DNA of 64,000 nt from an uncultured Pseudomonadota bacterium (GTDB lineage: Bacteria; Vulcanimicrobiota; Vulcanimicrobiia; Eremiobacterales; Eremiobacteraceae): contig CAVTNB010000001.1 of the NCBI GenBank assembly GCA_963736005.1, positions 768,001 to 832,000 on the forward strand, given 5' to 3'. A model generated the notes under the pieces. That model was not told the DNA's origin and ran no database searches. It saw only the letters and a program-made list of their open reading frames with translations. Positions within the stretch are counted from its first letter, which is position 1; the number at the start of each line of letters is the position of its first letter. The position numbers and the translations under genes were made by a program. Shown in pieces: positions 33,883-39,078 of this stretch.

Positions 33883-34571
33883 TTTATCATTTTTGCAACG
33901 ATACGTTTGGCAGACCGTTTCCGGCGGTGTCAGCTGCGTTTGCGAAAGCGAGTGGGCTGCGGATCGTTCGGGTGTTGGCTGAGAAGCCGCCCGAATCTTC
34001 GCTTGCTTCGATGTCGAAAGCGATTCGCAGACCCGCAAGTCGCGCGCTTCGACGCGTTCAGCGGATGTTAACTAGAGCTCCCAGTCATGGTGAGGATTTG
34101 CCGACTCTCTATGTAACTGACGTCAACGCTCAAAGTTTCCGGCGATATATCAAAAAGGGCGACGCCGGCGTCATCACGGGCTTCAATCAGATCTTTAGCG
34201 CGGAGACGATCGAACGCTTCAGCTCGTTCGTGAATCTGCATCCCTCAATATTGCCGCTCTACCGCGGACCGGTTCCGACCTACTGGTGCATTCGCAATCG
34301 CGAACGCTTGACTGGATTCACCTTGCATAAGGTGACTCCCAAGATTGACGTAGGCGAAGCGCTGTATCAGGAAGTTGTTCCCATTGAGGGCGAGACCGAT
34401 GTGCTCGGTCTCGAGCTGAAGATCGCTCGCGCTGCGCTGCCGATGTTCTCGCGTTACTTAGAGCACCTTGCAACCGGCATGGAATGGGTGCCTCAATACG
34501 TTGATGCGTTCACCGTATACCAAACGCATCAGAACTACGCGACGTTTCCGGAGCTAGAATCTTTGGGATGA
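33876..34571 (+). CDS. Formyltransferase-family protein
   Basis: NLHPSILPLYRGPVP, GFTLH, IDVG; its stop overlaps the tRNA-Leu 3' end. Confidence 0.82.
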   Translation: MVIYHFCNDTFGRPFPAVSAAFAKASGLRIVRVLAEKPPESSLASMSKAIRRPASRALRRVQRMLTRAPSHGEDLPTLYVTDVNAQSFRRYIKKGDAGVITGFNQIFSAETIERFSSFVNLHPSILPLYRGPVPTYWCIRNRERLTGFTLHKVTPKIDVGEALYQEVVPIEGETDVLGLELKIARAALPMFSRYLEHLATGMEWVPQYVDAFTVYQTHQNYATFPELESLG

Positions 34572-34896
34572 CCGGGACTCGAACCCGGACGCCCTTTCGG
34601 GCGACAGATTTTCGCACCACTATGGCTTTCGCCACCACGTAAAGCGGACCTAAAGGTCCGCTGCTACATTGTTTGTGGTCCGGACTGTGCCTTGACCATA
34701 TCGCTTTGCCGCGACGTAGGCCGCGCCCATCCAGTCTCTACGCCTTCTTTCGTGCGTGCATCGAAAGCTTGGTTCGGCGTTGTCACGCCCCGCGGGCAAG
34801 AGAGTTCGCCGAGTTTGAGCGCATCCCGAAGGCGGTTTCCCAATCCTTCGGCTCCAAACGGAAGTCTGTCGTGTCTGCCGATTTCACCATCATCCC
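34564..34896 (-). tRNA. tRNA-Leu(UAA), intron-containing; exons 34896-34862 and 34612-34564
   Basis: Joined exons GGGATGATGGTGAAATCGGCAGACACGACAGACTT^AAAATCTGTCGCCCGAAAGGGCGTCCGGGTTCGAGTCCCGGTCATCCCA form a class II cloverleaf; CCA not encoded. Confidence 0.93.
34613..34861 (-). ncRNA. Group I intron (IC3-like), 249 nt, no ORF
   Basis: Follows exon U, ends in G; P1 CUU|C..GGAG with U-G at the splice site; P CTCAAACTCGGCGAA, Q AACGCCGAACCAAGC, R GTAGAGACTGGATGG, S AAGGCACAGTCC. Confidence 0.92.
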
Positions 34897-35166: not shown

Positions 35167-35281
35167 GGGCGACTTGACAGTCGCCCACTACGTTGGCGCG
35201 GGCGGCGGGAATGGGGCGATTTTCCAATCGCCCCCTACAGGGCGCGGACGGCATTTGGGCGATTTTCCAATCGCCCGCTAC
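35167..35281 (-). repeat. Three tandem REP family A hairpins (about 45-bp period)
   Basis: Copies at 35167, 35213 and 35257; the last supplies the TAG stop of the upstream minus-strand gene. Confidence 0.88.
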
Positions 35282-37401
35282 ACGACTGGGGCGAGGACGA
35301 GGAGCTCGTTTACCCCTTCGTCCAGCACTTGCTGGGCGAAGCTTTTTGGCCCCAGCCATCGCGGCTTCGTGCGAACCCCCTCCACAACAAACGTTGCTCC
35401 TGGGTGCGCCGCACCCATTCGCGCCAAGCCCCTCGCGGGGTTGGTGTCGGAATCGACCACCCAACGCCCATCGAGCATCCGCGTTGTTTCGCTCAACGTC
35501 TTGAGCGCAGCGCTTTGCGCGGCTTGCGCCGACGAGCTCACATGCACTACCGTAAAATCCGCATTGAGACGCTTGGCAAGCCGCGCCGCACGCTGCACGA
35601 GCACCGTGTCGCGCTCCCGAGCTGCGACCCCGAGCACAATTTCGCGGACGACATGCGGCACGCGCGTCGTTGCGCGCGCCCTCAGTGCTTCTCGCAAGGC
35701 GAGCTCGCGCAGCGCTGTGAGATTCTCGGTCCGAAAGAACGAACTGAGCGCTGCTTCAATCCGTTCCTTTGGATAAATTTTCCCCGCGCGGAGGCGATCG
35801 CGCAGCGTCTGGGCGCTGGCGTCGATGAGAACGACGTCGTCTGCCAGCTCCAAGATGCCATCCGGCATCGTCTCGCGTACCGTTACGCCCGTGAGCCGGC
35901 GCACGATGTCATTGAGACCTTCGAGATGTTGAACGTTGAGCGTAGTCAGCACCGAGATCCCCGACCTCAGGACGCTGAGAACGTCTTCATAGCGCTTGGG
36001 AAATTTGCTGCCGGGGGCGTTGGTGTGCGCAAGCTCGTCGATGAGGGCAACCTGTGGGCGGCGCTTAAGCAGCGCTTCGAGATCGAGCTCTGAATAGCGC
36101 ATCCCACCACTGACGATCTCTAATCTCGGTAACGTTTCCAGGCCTTCAAGTTTCCGGGTCGTATCGACACGCCCATGTGTCTCGACAAATGCAATGACGA
36201 CGTCGACACCTTCGCTTTTCAATTGGTGTGCCTGGTCGAGCATCGCATAGGTCTTGCCGCATCCGGCCGCCGCGCCCAGATAGACGGTGAGGCGACCGTA
36301 ACCCACGCGCATCCGATCGCCAGCCGTGCGCGCGTACGGATGCTGGCCAAAATCGTACGGTCCTTCTCGCTCGACGGGTTCGACGAGCCTCGAGGCGACG
36401 AACACATCGCGATCGATAGGGAGCTTCAGCAATTCGCTCGATACCCTGCCTTTCGGCAGCGCGACAAACGAAGCTGCGAGGTCGCGAAGTTGTGGTCTTG
36501 CAAAATCAAACGTCGAGTTCGACACGACGTGCGCGCCAACGGACGTGGCGACTCGCGCAACACTCTCTTCGCCGAAGCCGGGCGCTGGCAACACGGCGAG
36601 ATCGAGATTGAAGGCGTCCGCAAACGCGCCGACCCGGGCAAGAAACGCTTCAGTATTGAAGCCCGGGAACAAGAGCGCGAGCGCCGTTGACATGCGAGCG
36701 GCGGGGAGCTCCGGCACTGTGAGGTCATCAATGGTCCGCAGCATCATCTCGCGCAATGCGCGCAACGTCTGCGGCCGAAATGGGCCTTGCAACGCGCGCT
36801 CGATATCATCTTTGCGCACGATAGCGCCCGCGTAGAGGCGCGCTTCAAGCTGCTCGCGCTCCACGTCGATGGCAATAACCTGGTCTGCCGCTTTGAGAAA
36901 CGTCAGCGGCACGATTTCCCGAATGGGGAAGCCGATGAGGGCTTCTGCCGTCGGTGCGACGGTATCGAGGTGCGCGATGTTCATCGCACCGAGCACGCTG
37001 ATGCCGGCAGCGCGCAGGGCGAGGGCGTCTTGCCAGCGCTTCGCGTGCACGGATCCGGGAAGATTCGTGTGCGCAAGCTCATCGAGCACAATAGCCTGTG
37101 GTCGCGCAGCCAGCGCGGCTTCGAAGTCAAACTCGGGGAACGTCGTCGCTCCAACTTCAACCATTCGCGGGGGGATGCGCGGCAGACCCTCGCACAGTCT
37201 CTCGAGATCCGCCCTGCCTTTTGTTTCGATCCATCCGAGCACGACGTTGGTGCCGCTCTGTTGTAACTGTCGAGCTTCGCCGATCAGCCGATACGTCTTG
37301 CCCGCTCCGGGAGCGAAGCTGACGAACACCGTGAGGCGCGCCTGGGCCCCAATCTCCTTGAGGAGCTCGGTTGGGGTGGGGCGCTGCGCACGTGCGTCCA
37401 T
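35278..37401 (-). CDS. Soluble protein with two KdpD N-terminal sensor domains and a USP-like C-terminus
   Basis: LTVFVSFAPGAGKTY..DELAHTN..KRWQD and LTVYLGAAAGCGKTYAML..DELAHTN..KRYED; no TM or kinase domain; start ATG 37401. Confidence 0.88.
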   Translation of the reverse strand: MDARAQRPTPTELLKEIGAQARLTVFVSFAPGAGKTYRLIGEARQLQQSGTNVVLGWIETKGRADLERLCEGLPRIPPRMVEVGATTFPEFDFEAALAARPQAIVLDELAHTNLPGSVHAKRWQDALALRAAGISVLGAMNIAHLDTVAPTAEALIGFPIREIVPLTFLKAADQVIAIDVEREQLEARLYAGAIVRKDDIERALQGPFRPQTLRALREMMLRTIDDLTVPELPAARMSTALALLFPGFNTEAFLARVGAFADAFNLDLAVLPAPGFGEESVARVATSVGAHVVSNSTFDFARPQLRDLAASFVALPKGRVSSELLKLPIDRDVFVASRLVEPVEREGPYDFGQHPYARTAGDRMRVGYGRLTVYLGAAAGCGKTYAMLDQAHQLKSEGVDVVIAFVETHGRVDTTRKLEGLETLPRLEIVSGGMRYSELDLEALLKRRPQVALIDELAHTNAPGSKFPKRYEDVLSVLRSGISVLTTLNVQHLEGLNDIVRRLTGVTVRETMPDGILELADDVVLIDASAQTLRDRLRAGKIYPKERIEAALSSFFRTENLTALRELALREALRARATTRVPHVVREIVLGVAARERDTVLVQRAARLAKRLNADFTVVHVSSSAQAAQSAALKTLSETTRMLDGRWVVDSDTNPARGLARMGAAHPGATFVVEGVRTKPRWLGPKSFAQQVLDEGVNELLVLAPVV

Positions 37402-37455
37402 GAGTGGATTCTTCTGCCAGGTCAAAAGCTTTTCCAGCCGAAGCGTCCGATTGAA

Positions 37456-39078
37456 ATGCAGAACTCCGCAAACATGAGACCACACCTGACGCTCATTGTC
37501 TGCATTGTTCTTCTCCTCGGCGCGTTTGCGTTTGACATGATAACGCCGCAAGCGCTCGTGGCAGCGATTCTGTTGACCATTCCCGTGGCGTTGAGCAGCT
37601 TGCTTCTCAACCGCAAGATCACGGGGACATTTGTCGTCGCGGCGCTCGTGGCCGACGTCGTTGCCGGTTGGTACAACGGCGCAGTCGAAGGACATCACTG
37701 GAGCACGATTGCCATCGCCAACCGGGCGCTGGCGGCGTTCTCCATCATTCTTGTCGGCGTGCTCGGCACGCTCGCGCAAGCAGCAGCGCAACGAAGCGGC
37801 CAAATTGCGGCCGAGCACCGTCAGGCCGAGCGAGAGCAGGCACTGCGCCGAGCCATGGAAACGATTCGTTCGTCGCTCAACGTCGAACTCGTCGCGCGGG
37901 CAATCGTACGGGAAGCGGTTGAGGCCCTGGGCGTCGACAGCGCTCGCCTTTATACGATTGAGAGCCATAATTTGGGAGCGACAACCTTCACGTGGGTCGC
38001 CGGCGGCGAGGACGTGAGCGTCAGCTGCGACCGTCCGAGCGCAGAGCTGCTTTCTCTGTTACAGCGAAGTCTCAGCGAGCGGCATCTCGTTGCGATAACC
38101 GAAGCCGATGCGCTGGGAAGGTTTGCGCTCGCGACGCTGGGCGCGGCACGCGCGATATGCGTCCCCTTAGTGAACTCCCAAATCACGTTTGGCATGCTGC
38201 TCTTGGCCGTCAAAGATGAGGGAAGTCTGCCGCCGGATATCGAGCAGTGGGTGGGAATCTTTGCCGAACAAGCCACCGTCGCGGCCGCTCAAGCCTCACT
38301 CTTTGTCGAGCTCGCCGATCGCAACGCCGAACTCCAGCAGGCAAACGAGACGCTGCAACGGCGTGGCGAGGTCATCCGTGACCTCGTGTATGCGTTATCT
38401 CACGACCTACGCACGCCCCTCACTGCGGCCGCGATGACCATGCAACAGGCACTCGACGGCGTTTACGGTCCGCTGCCGGAAAAGTATCGTGAAATTCTTC
38501 TCCGCTCGATTGTGTCGAACGACGAGCTTCGGCGGCTCGCCGAAACGTTGTTGCTCGTCGCTCGCTACGAGTCAGGCGAGCAATCGACCAGTCGCGAGCC
38601 CGTTGAGCTGGACGGTCTCGCCACGAGCGTGGTCACGGAGCTTGAGCCACTCTGGCGCGCGAAGCACATCGACTGCGCGGTTCGATCGGACGGTAAGTCG
38701 GCAATTTTAGGCGACGAGGCCGAGCTTCGGAGAGCGCTCACGAACCTGTTGGCCAACGCCATCAACTGGACGCCCGAAGGAGGCCACATTTGGATTACGA
38801 TCGCGCCCGCCGGCGCGAGAGTTTTGGTACGGGTTGAAGATGACGGCTACGGCGTTCCGCCACATGTGCGCAAGCAACTCTTTCAGCGCTTTGGCCCCGG
38901 CGATCACTCGCGACAAGGTGCGGGATCGGGGCTAGGTTTATACCTCGTCCGGCTGATCGCGGAAAATAACGGGGGAACGATTCGTTATGAACCCCGTGAA
39001 GGCGGGGGCAGCACCTTTGCGATCGATTTACCTGCCGCGCAAGCCGATGTAGCATCGCGAATTCATTCGCGAGTTTGA
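37456..39078 (+). CDS. Membrane sensor histidine kinase (4TM-GAF-HisKA-HATPase)
   Basis: N-terminal TMs, GAF-like segment, SHDLRTPLT, NLLANA, GSGLGL. Confidence 0.92.
   Translation: MQNSANMRPHLTLIVCIVLLLGAFAFDMITPQALVAAILLTIPVALSSLLLNRKITGTFVVAALVADVVAGWYNGAVEGHHWSTIAIANRALAAFSIILVGVLGTLAQAAAQRSGQIAAEHRQAEREQALRRAMETIRSSLNVELVARAIVREAVEALGVDSARLYTIESHNLGATTFTWVAGGEDVSVSCDRPSAELLSLLQRSLSERHLVAITEADALGRFALATLGAARAICVPLVNSQITFGMLLLAVKDEGSLPPDIEQWVGIFAEQATVAAAQASLFVELADRNAELQQANETLQRRGEVIRDLVYALSHDLRTPLTAAAMTMQQALDGVYGPLPEKYREILLRSIVSNDELRRLAETLLLVARYESGEQSTSREPVELDGLATSVVTELEPLWRAKHIDCAVRSDGKSAILGDEAELRRALTNLLANAINWTPEGGHIWITIAPAGARVLVRVEDDGYGVPPHVRKQLFQRFGPGDHSRQGAGSGLGLYLVRLIAENNGGTIRYEPREGGGSTFAIDLPAAQADVASRIHSRV

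Follow-up and report, generated by a model that had tools for sequence, protein, structure and literature searches.

Several small bacterial tRNA introns offer close comparisons for the locus analysed here. Williams 2020 describes a 'Leu.3Ug' class that is inserted between U34 and A35 of tRNA-Leu(UAA), with CUU before the intron, a terminal g in the intron and AAAA after it, and reports that all four of the classical types of bacterial tRNA intron carry the label IC3 in a group I intron database. The cyanobacterial and plastid trnL(UAA) intron, the classical case (reviewed in PMC4033280), shares its point of insertion and its general fold with the intron described here. The Azoarcus tRNA intron, which measures 205 nt and is built of the same helix set, self-splices efficiently at 37 C (PMC13168695).

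In the window (the whole stretch of 64,000 nucleotides that was analysed) a group I intron of 249 nt, preceded by U, sits between U34 and A35 of a tRNA-Leu(UAA) gene, which is the insertion point of the Leu.3Ug class. We put the probability at about 85% that this is a functional small bacterial tRNA-type group I intron (IC3-like, Leu.3Ug), carried in the single tRNA-Leu(UAA) gene of an Eremiobacterota soil bacterium. The host is most likely a soil bacterium of the Eremiobacterota (Vulcanimicrobiota), as judged from the nearest named loci (intron and tRNA similarity) and not from marker genes; these nearest relatives are MAGs of that phylum, in line with the non-cyanobacterial host proposed in a preliminary description of the sequence. 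The phylum has a cultured member in Vulcanimicrobium.

The intron shares with the Leu.3Ug class the gene and splice site, U at -1, the terminal G, the absence of an ORF and the size range (210-270 nt), and over its full length it shows homology to the Leu introns of Acidobacteriota, Alpha- and Betaproteobacteria, Bacteroidota and Chloroflexota. It differs in that it belongs to a distinct and well-supported clade, found only in two Eremiobacterota families as far as sampled, whose P3, P4 and P7 have sequences set apart by compensatory changes and which the Rfam model RF00028 (Intron_gpI) scores below gathering or not at all; moreover, this copy has a REP-type insert. The cyanobacterial trnL introns, in contrast, form a long-branched clade of their own (100/100), are not the nearest relatives of this intron and receive 60-91 bits from RF00028, which gives this intron no score. 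The best structural and mechanistic model is the Azoarcus intron, likewise a compact anticodon-loop intron with P2-P9 and P9.0 and without large peripheral domains, although it lies in another tRNA at another site and the Ile2-type introns of our scan (L028, L073) fall on a separate branch. Because the classical bacterial tRNA intron types are marked IC3 and this intron is homologous to them, its subgroup would be IC3.

Anatomy and covariation of the split gene

The split gene occupies positions 34896..34564 of the window on the minus strand, with G1 at 34896 and the discriminator A at 34564. Its parts are the following (all on the minus strand):

34862..34896, minus: 5' exon, G1 to U34, 35 nt, ending CUU; 97-100% identical to the 5' half of the intron-less genes of two relatives (G001, G004)
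34613..34861, minus: group I intron, 249 nt, IC3-type by homology, without ORF; first base C, last base G
34564..34612, minus: 3' exon, A35 to discriminator A, 49 nt, starting AAAA; CCA not encoded
34852..34864, minus: P1, in which exon CUU and intron C1 pair with GGAG of the internal guide (34855..34852), a U-G wobble marking the 5' splice site
34826..34851, minus: P2, a hairpin with a GAAA tetraloop at its tip (34839..34836); compensatory changes in 5 of 9 pairs
34817..34822, minus: P3 5' strand, partner 34728..34723; invariant in the clade, 3 of 6 pairs covarying and 100% paired in the 33-intron set
34774..34812, minus: P4 (34812..34807 with 34779..34774) around P5/P5a; P4 100% paired with 1 pair covarying, P5 with 6 of 7 pairs covarying
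34743..34772, minus: P6, tip variable; 5 of 6 pairs covarying
34732..34736, minus: P7 5' strand GACUG, partner 34687..34683 (CAGUC), pseudoknot with P3; 5 pairs formed in every sequence
34694..34722, minus: P8, motif CCUACG...UAUGG; inner pairs 4 of 4 covarying
34616..34679, minus: 3' domain, comprising P9.0 (34679..34675 with 34620..34616), a variable hairpin and P9 (34635..34622), GAAA-capped
34641..34670, minus: REP-type dispersed repeat (GTAG and 8-bp palindrome), between P9.0 and P9
34613, minus: terminal G (omega G) before the 3' splice site; present in 17 of 17 clade introns

The 249-nt insert at U^AA in 34564..34896, as given in the preliminary description, proved exact: with introns allowed, ARAGORN reports tRNA-Leu(taa) with i(37,249) at this genome position. 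The exons are 96-100% identical to the intron-less genes of relatives. The same split gene with identical boundaries was found in 17 of 41 relatives, and the intron is carried by 69 of 201 genomes of the phylum, so that a chance resemblance is excluded. Two other readings of the insert, as an integrated mobile element or as an intron of archaeal (bulge-helix-bulge) type, were considered and rejected, the group I helices and the REP hairpin accounting for all 249 nt. An endonuclease gene would not fit into an intron of this length, and no overlapping ORF has a Pfam match, in agreement with the earlier statement that a homing endonuclease ORF is missing; neither a maturase nor an endonuclease is encoded within or adjoining it. 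A scan for promoters and terminators returned no promoter-like and two terminator-like sites (1.0 expected), an uninformative result.

The fold is that of a group I ribozyme, from P1 to P9, and the core (P3-P4-P5-P6 with P7-P3'-P8-P7' and the P3/P7 pseudoknot) is supported by covariation. Unbiased RNAalifold recovered P1-P6, P8, P9.0 and P9 together with the anticodon stem, and 28 of the 73 pairs that it predicted show compensatory changes. Once P7 is included, the 17 clade introns pair in 96.6% of 1199 cells, versus 32-41% with slid partners, and none of 500 shuffles reached any of five measures; over 33 introns from several phyla 96.7% pair, versus 29-40% in slid controls, and four of the five measures were reached by none of 500 shuffles and the fifth by three. 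Depending on the set (17 relatives or 33 introns), 25-28 pairs show compensatory changes, which occur in P2, P3, P4, P5, P6, P7, P8, P9.0 and P9; P3, P4 and P7 do not vary within the clade, their covariation support coming from the other phyla in the 33-intron set.

The hallmarks listed in the preliminary description (U-G in P1, core elements, terminal G) are all present, P4 and P7 being the core pairings seen, and its group I identification is borne out by the covariation together with the profile homology described below. The P1 pairs C-G, U-A and U-G (exon CUU with intron GAG) are invariant in 33 of 33 introns, and 58 of the 59 Leu(taa) introns whose limits ARAGORN gives likewise have U before the intron and G as its last base. 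The fifth pair of P7, presumed to be the guanosine-binding helix, is G-C in 17 of the 33 introns, A-U in 15 and U-A in one. A proposed sixth P7 pair was dropped, being unpaired in 14 of 33. The P8 motif presumably resembles, by analogy, a tetraloop receptor.

Splicing and the decoding of UUA

By the standard mechanism the precursor would fold with exon CUU paired to intron GAG in P1, and free guanosine at P7 would attack after U34. The terminal G (34613) would then take the same site and the freed 5' exon would attack after that G, joining U34 to A35 in an 84-nt tRNA, followed by CCA addition.

Splicing is probably essential, because this is the only tRNA-Leu(UAA) found (among 50 tRNA calls in the assembly, which is 84% complete) and TTA codons occur in 1510 of 2161 crude ORFs (~70%; 3.8 per 1000 codons). 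With TTA so widespread and no other tRNA able to read it, normal translation would need the spliced product, which makes plausible the earlier suggestion that UUA decoding may depend on splicing; an intron-less copy elsewhere, which had been proposed as a point to check, was not found in this assembly. No exon-exon junction was present in the contigs of four sequencing runs (X16, X17, X18 and X1; X16 is a true metatranscriptome, X17 and X18 are RNA by guess only), and these contigs show neither splicing nor its absence. The single X16 contig over the locus (172 nt, 34706-34868, 3 differences) covers the intron core and 7 nt of the 5' exon, and represents at most the unspliced form or DNA carry-over from a relative.

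The missing spliced RNA in the four runs, the incomplete assembly and the repeat element inside the intron could also be read as signs of a decaying pseudogene, whose intron no longer splices and whose codon is read otherwise or by an unassembled tRNA copy. This is hardly credible, however, given exons nearly identical to the relatives' intron-less genes, helices maintained by compensatory change over 17 and 33 sequences, the same gene at the same locus in two other genomes (G002 and G003), and the frequency of TTA in a genome with no other tRNA-Leu(UAA) found. A second alternative accepts a group I ribozyme in form and holds that splicing in the cell needs a protein cofactor, the RNA alone not self-splicing efficiently. 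Many organellar group I introns are protein-dependent (PMC9275481), and the REP insert in the 3' domain together with the low Rfam score across the clade leaves room for reduced autonomy; against this stand a complete, compact and strongly conserved core, the pair of GAAA tetraloops and the receptor-like motifs that small self-splicing tRNA introns also have, the efficient self-splicing of the Azoarcus intron with the same helices, and the lack of a maturase or endonuclease in or beside the intron. We regard this alternative as improbable and favour a functional intron of the ordinary bacterial type.

Detection by annotation tools and profiles

As the preliminary description had anticipated, standard annotation misses the gene. 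ARAGORN with default settings calls no tRNA here, and Rfam gives no match to the locus at gathering, none at E <= 10 (901 bases searched) and none with RF00028 over the whole genome. The only RF00028 matches of the genome fall in the 23S rRNA gene. According to PMC8450103 a further tool, tRNAscan-SE, is not intended for introns of this kind.

The preliminary description had proposed group I covariance models as a check on the identity of the intron and would have taken a missing hit, together with a missing spliced product, as refuting it; Rfam indeed returned none, whereas homology was established by a profile of validated introns. This nhmmer profile, made from 22 introns whose RF00028 scores reach or exceed gathering (50 bits), none of them from the Eremiobacterota clade, matches 34841-34617 on the minus strand at E 2.6e-22 (HMM positions 21-242 of 246), its sole significant match in the genome. 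RF00028 itself recovers none of 15 introns of the clade at gathering and two below threshold (44.6 and 32.1 bits), and it matches 13 of 13 other tRNA-intron loci tested (23.7-60.9 bits). Because the clade scores below threshold in two of 15 cases and the profile of validated introns gives such a match, the missing Rfam hit reflects the RF00028 model and not the RNA. That Rfam is nearly blind to this clade is a newly described detail; none of its 12 seed sequences is bacterial, according to Williams 2020.

Since default ARAGORN and RF00028 both overlook the split gene, annotation would report tRNA-Leu(UAA) as missing in this organism and in the 69 of 201 sampled genomes of the phylum. For a soil phylum about which little is known, such an overlooked gene can skew estimates of completeness and of the tRNA complement.

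Distribution, origin and the REP-type insert

The carriers in the phylum all fall within two of the 21 families sampled. A sister species has an intron-less allele at the same locus, and intron-plus and intron-minus alleles share one syntenic locus within a genus; at least four genera are involved overall. The intron would have entered the common ancestor of the two families, or earlier, and would since have been inherited mostly vertically with repeated precise loss. Outside cyanobacteria, introns in tRNA-Leu(UAA) are frequent (~30 of 80 loci among the motif-scan matches listed). The intron is an ordinary one, of a kind already catalogued in many non-cyanobacterial bacteria (Williams 2020), and the rarity implied in the preliminary description does not stand. 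A tRNA-Leu(UAA) intron in a gamma-proteobacterium was reportedly described in J Bacteriol in 2002. In the literature searched no description of the intron of the Eremiobacterota clade was found; the tables or supplements of Williams 2020 may include it.

The Eremiobacterota intron clade is monophyletic (100/100) and nests, in the careful tree, among alphaproteobacterial introns of tRNA-Arg(CCU) type (supports 98/73 and 98/94). These 'Arg.5Ug' introns (L039, L043, L068 and others, from Rhodobacter, Acetobacteraceae and Neorhizobium) are its nearest relatives: of five introns delimited within tRNA-Arg(CCU), or within what was miscalled tRNA-His, four (L043, L039, L068, L030) have G-C as the fifth P7 pair, much core sequence is common to all five and this intron, and RF00028 places them below gathering too (0 of 9 at gathering). 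They differ in lying in another tRNA at another place of the anticodon loop (after position 36/37 by ARAGORN), with a guide that matches another exon.

The phylogenetic check suggested in the preliminary description gave a divided answer. Monophyly of all Leu(UAA) introns was rejected (p 0.004, lnL difference 99), as was a clade of the Eremiobacterota and other-phyla Leu introns (p 0.006, lnL difference 82; this grouping was defined only once the quick tree was known), but an AU test did not reject the Eremiobacterota and cyanobacterial Leu introns as one clade (p 0.43), although the two are not sister in the free trees. On these trees the Leu(UAA) introns as a whole are thus not one lineage, which is a newly described detail.

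On a rival view, this intron and that of cyanobacteria and plastids would go back by vertical descent to one ancestral tRNA-Leu(UAA) intron, an ancient bacterial feature lost almost everywhere. The identical insertion site, the detection of this intron by a profile of 16 cyanobacterial trnL introns alone (E 5.9e-6) and the outcome of the AU test are what such descent would predict; the nesting among Arg(CCU)-type introns, the two rejected groupings (the second with the qualification given), the presence in so few families and the data behind the trees (~220 alignable columns, with sampling biased by the scan motif and drawn from the matches listed) argue against it, and we think it rather unlikely. 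As to the cyanobacterial side of the comparison, the two cyanobacterial MAGs from the motif scan have no trnL intron at E <= 0.01, and the comparison introns were sampled from 31 genomes of their class. As a tentative proposal, which we rate somewhat below even odds, the Leu(UAA) site may have been colonised more than once, the Eremiobacterota intron being a host-switched offshoot of the Arg(CCU) lineage and not a cyanobacterial relic, and the P9.0/P9 junction being a landing site for REP elements. The switch of tRNA could have come about, for instance, through reverse splicing into another anticodon loop, the guide sequence being retuned; under repeated colonisation the intron would then have spread through the two families, its alleles now being lost one by one.

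REP elements are repetitive extragenic palindromes mobilised by RAYT Y1 transposases, and a 5' GTAG is their signature. The insert resembles them as a 27-30-nt unit that combines a 5' GTAG with a perfect palindrome and occurs at ~149 places in the genome (100 exact pattern matches), and differs in lying inside a ribozyme and not between genes. The genome has three Y1_Tnp (PF01797) matches, which are candidate RAYTs only. The insert is absent from the G003 intron and from most relatives, and the contig of one relative skips 34636-34672; with it, the 3' domain still folds as P9.0, hairpin and P9 (-35.8 kcal/mol, z -5.5). A REP-type element within the intron is a newly described detail, and the repeat would have been gained later, in this genus, at a tolerant junction of the 3' domain. 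Two sister species have two different REP families at the P9.0/P9 junction, in opposite orientations.

Knowledge of how such introns work is unchanged by this case. The intron tree adds data to the old debate on the origins of tRNA-Leu introns, and the landing of REP elements at P9.0/P9, if true, would be an unreported interaction of two kinds of selfish or structured DNA. With both alleles at one syntenic locus, the clade is a clean natural experiment on intron loss.

The split tRNA-Leu(UAA) gene and the decoding of UUA

The gene and its parts are located as follows (window positions):

34896..34564, minus strand: class II tRNA gene, anticodon UAA
34861..34613, minus strand: intron of 249 nt, between U34 (34862) and A35 (34612)
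34670..34641, minus strand: REP-type unit of 27-30 nt at intron positions 192-221, GTAG and then a perfect 8-bp palindrome

The anticodon loop C-U-U-A-A-A-A is interrupted between U34 and A35, and because the insert begins with C and ends with G, the intron boundaries are fixed and allow no sliding. ARAGORN called tRNA-Leu(taa) i(37,249) at this place when introns were allowed and made no call at the locus at default settings. The coordinates, the intron length, the U-G pair and the terminal G given in the preliminary description are all correct, as is its strand-neutral account, and its claim that standard annotation often overlooks such tRNAs agrees with the blanks drawn here by default ARAGORN and by the Rfam model Intron_gpI (RF00028, gathering score 50 bits).

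The source genome (2.84 Mb, 58.7% G+C, 84% complete) yielded 50 tRNA calls, among which this gene alone is a tRNA-Leu(UAA), intron-less or otherwise; the other tRNA-Leu anticodons are UAG, CAA, CAG and GAG. Under standard decoding rules UUA is read solely by the UAA anticodon. TTA accounts for 3.8 of every 1000 codons and is present in 1510 of the 2161 crudely called ORFs. From the sole UAA tRNA and the widespread TTA it follows that splicing is probably essential, unless a second gene copy is located in the 16% that the assembly lacks; it had been proposed earlier that UUA decoding may hinge on self-splicing. The splicing mechanism would be that of the group I family; the closest structural model, the Azoarcus pre-tRNA-Ile intron (205 nt, with the same helices), is described as self-splicing at 37 C (PMC13168695). 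Spliced RNA was not seen in the contigs from four runs.

Group I fold and homology

RF00028 gave no match at the locus, neither at gathering, nor at E <= 10 on 901 bases, nor in the genome-wide search, and because Rfam was thus silent on group I identity, the fold was tested directly. The same split gene was recovered by DNA search in 17 of 41 related genomes (counting the source genome), with introns of 214-265 nt that all follow U34 and end with G. Unguided RNAalifold on these 17 sequences returned the anticodon stem, P1, P2, P3, P4, P5, P6, P8, P9.0 and P9, with compensatory changes in 28 of the 73 predicted pairs; P7, a pseudoknot that RNAalifold cannot draw, was added, and the resulting structure contains 71 pairs. 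In this structure 96.6% of 1199 cells are paired, versus 32-41% in controls with the 3' partners slid 1-3 columns, and none of 500 shuffles equalled the observed values. Since P3, P4 and P7 never vary within the clade formed by the Eremiobacterota tRNA-Leu(UAA) introns, we examined a wider alignment of 33 Leu introns (17 from Eremiobacterota and 16 from other phyla), in which 96.7% of 1748 cells are paired versus 29-40% when slid. Compensatory changes were found here in three of the six P3 pairs and one of the six P4 pairs, the fifth P7 pair is G-C in 17 introns, A-U in 15 and U-A in one, and the P1 trio C-G, U-A, U-G is constant in 33 of 33. An additional P7 pair that was once proposed is unpaired in 14 of the 33 and was dropped.

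An nhmmer profile was built from 22 introns at or above RF00028 gathering (6 loci from the motif scan described below and 16 cyanobacterial trnL introns, with no clade members). It matched window positions 34841-34617 on the minus strand with E 2.6e-22, over profile positions 21-242 of 246 and with the envelope ending at the terminal G, and it had no other significant match in the 2.84-Mb genome. When restricted to the 16 cyanobacterial introns, the profile still recovered the locus (E 5.9e-6), as its sole match in the window. The covariance-model check advised in the preliminary description drew a blank with Rfam, but group I membership is upheld by profile homology and is secure.

The missing Rfam match lies with the model, not with the RNA. 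At E <= 10, RF00028 matched all 13 tRNA-intron loci of other lineages (23.7-60.9 bits) and none of five clade loci in a first test; ten further clade loci gave 44.6 and 32.1 bits for two and nothing for eight, so that in total 2 of 15 had any match and 0 of 15 one at gathering. RF00028 also performs poorly on the tRNA-Arg(CCU)-type introns of Alphaproteobacteria that lie closest to the clade (some match in 7 of 9, at gathering in 0 of 9). According to Williams (2020), the 12 seed sequences of Rfam include no bacterial one, and a bacterial model increased the yield by 20%. The earlier proposal to take a missing covariance-model hit as evidence against the intron thus fails on technical grounds.

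Elsewhere in the source genome, RF00028 found a group I intron (58 bits) in the bacterial 23S rRNA gene (C1:1139562-1144173, beyond the window), where 363 nt are inserted close to position 1953 of the LSU model, and it matched again more weakly (27 bits) about 1.3 kb from there; group I introns of two or more kinds are thus present in this genome. ARAGORN with introns called three more 'intron-containing' tRNAs (C1:62417-62601, C1:697687-697918 and C1:1627270-1627536) with implausible anticodon positions (126, 170 and 230), which look like false positives because the group I profile has no match in them.

Relatives and origin

The conserved J6/7-P7 motif was used for one scan of a species-level set of genomes, which returned at least 120 stretches; 80 loci were fetched, and in most of these ARAGORN delimited intron-split tRNAs. 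At least about 30 among the matches listed are tRNA-Leu(UAA) with the same split site, from Acidobacteriota, Alpha- and Betaproteobacteria, Bacteroidota, Chloroflexota, Verrucomicrobiota and Eremiobacterota; the remaining listed loci are tRNA-Arg(CCU), tRNA-Met/Ile(CAU), Ser, Thr and Phe, with some miscalls. Several ARAGORN isotype calls are plainly wrong (His atg; Met with an anticodon position >250). Related introns in tRNA-Ser, tRNA-Phe, tRNA-Thr and tRNA-Leu(CAA) of Proteobacteria, Acidobacteriota and Nitrospirota (loci L031, L083, L087, L088, L092, L093, L095, L098 and others) agree with the many new insertion types in Williams (2020). Of the loci with a named source among the matches listed, the closest come from MAGs labelled Candidatus Tumulicola (76% identical across the gene), Candidatus Eremiobacteraeota, Candidatus Elarobacter and Vulcanimicrobiota, and from a 1.8-kb contig binned as Opitutus. 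Going by this similarity of intron and tRNA, the host most likely belongs to Eremiobacterota (Vulcanimicrobiota); it is not a cyanobacterium, in line with the earlier view of the genome as apparently non-cyanobacterial. The Opitutus contig (L029, DAITQE010000801.1, 1817 bp, 'Opitutus sp.' MAG) has exons and intron that fall inside the Eremiobacterota clade, beside the related genome G032, and is therefore probably misbinned and not a transfer to Verrucomicrobiota.

Intron-only trees were calculated on about 220 alignable columns (a quick tree of 102 rows and a careful tree of 97, five long-branch rows being omitted), with a sampling that is biased as it was taken among matches listed from an exact-motif scan. 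The cyanobacterial set came from RF00028 over 31 genomes of one class, with matches in 19, from which 16 trnL introns were taken. In both trees the 22 Eremiobacterota introns group together as a single clade (100/100), as do the 16 cyanobacterial introns (100/100). The Eremiobacterota clade is nested among tRNA-Arg(CCU)-type introns of Alphaproteobacteria (support values 98/73 and 98/94), most of which have the same G-C form of the fifth P7 pair.

AU tests of intron groupings (lnL difference; p-AU; outcome)
All Leu(UAA) introns as one clade: 99; 0.004; rejected
Eremiobacterota with other-phyla Leu (grouping named after the quick tree): 82; 0.006; rejected
Eremiobacterota with cyanobacterial Leu: 3.4; 0.43; not rejected
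Eremiobacterota with Arg(CCU)-type: 6.0; 0.38; not rejected

These comparisons of intron sequences argue that the tRNA-Leu introns do not all share one origin; a firm placement of the Eremiobacterota clade is beyond these data.

Intron-less alleles and the REP-type insert

In an even sample of the phylum, 201 genomes from 21 families, the full-length intron-bearing gene was found in 69 (E 6e-162 to 9e-30), all from two families of one class (7 of 15 plus the source genome in f1, 61 of 113 in f2). Another 46 genomes of these families gave exon-only matches, and several of them have both halves contiguous and hence an intron-less gene; the other 19 families gave no match at the sensitivity of the survey. 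The tallies include two unpublished genomes (G013 and G229), of which our claims are independent. Intron presence is polymorphic inside at least four genera (g1, to which the source genome belongs, g2, g11 and g13). G001, a member of the same genus, has an uninterrupted tRNA-Leu(UAA) flanked by the same genes, with KdpD and formyl-transferase domains, as the split gene of the source genome, and the orthologous locus thus occurs with and without the intron. Another G001 contig (L020, G001:C146:1-51), whose first base is exactly that of the 3' exon, has an overlap with the end of the contig carrying the intron-less gene (L172, G001:C129:3718-3893); such a break could arise where the assembly graph of the sample forks into alleles with and without the intron. 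The 896-aa ORF upstream of the tRNA (window 35278-37968, minus) matches the KdpD sensor domain (E 3.5e-151, best stretch residues 558-761), and a histidine kinase domain is absent from its domain matches.

Copies of the REP-type unit, most of them 100% identical, occur at about 149 genomic places, 100 of which match the exact pattern; one lies at C1:835525-835554, just past the window's end. In G003 and most other relatives the intron site contains no more than a short hairpin, a contig from a relative omits 34636-34672, and DNA contigs from the sample that is probably the source are broken at 34641-34670. G002, whose gene region (L004, G002:C3) is 91% identical, has at the same P9.0/P9 junction a different GTAG-type palindrome in opposite orientation, which is also dispersed in the source genome (176 both-strand pattern matches, 72 with GTAG). 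Three Y1_Tnp (PF01797) matches were found in the source genome (C1:912314-912637, C1:1990631-1990951 and C3:138044-138214). The 3' domain with the insert is still predicted to form P9.0, an extended hairpin and P9 (-35.8 kcal/mol, z -5.5). The insert looks tolerated, and the P9.0/P9 junction looks like an insertion hotspot.

Reviews still place bacterial tRNA group I introns mostly in cyanobacteria, with few in alpha- and beta-proteobacteria (PMC4033280). Williams (2020) mapped 5292 such introns in 80,413 bacterial genomes, with Leu.3Ug as a classical type and a Leu.3Cg variant in Proteobacteria. The tRNA-Leu(UAA) intron type itself is therefore already known, and what is added here are modest details: a clade near-invisible to Rfam and placed apart from other Leu introns, presence and absence at the level of alleles, and REP-type elements within a ribozyme.
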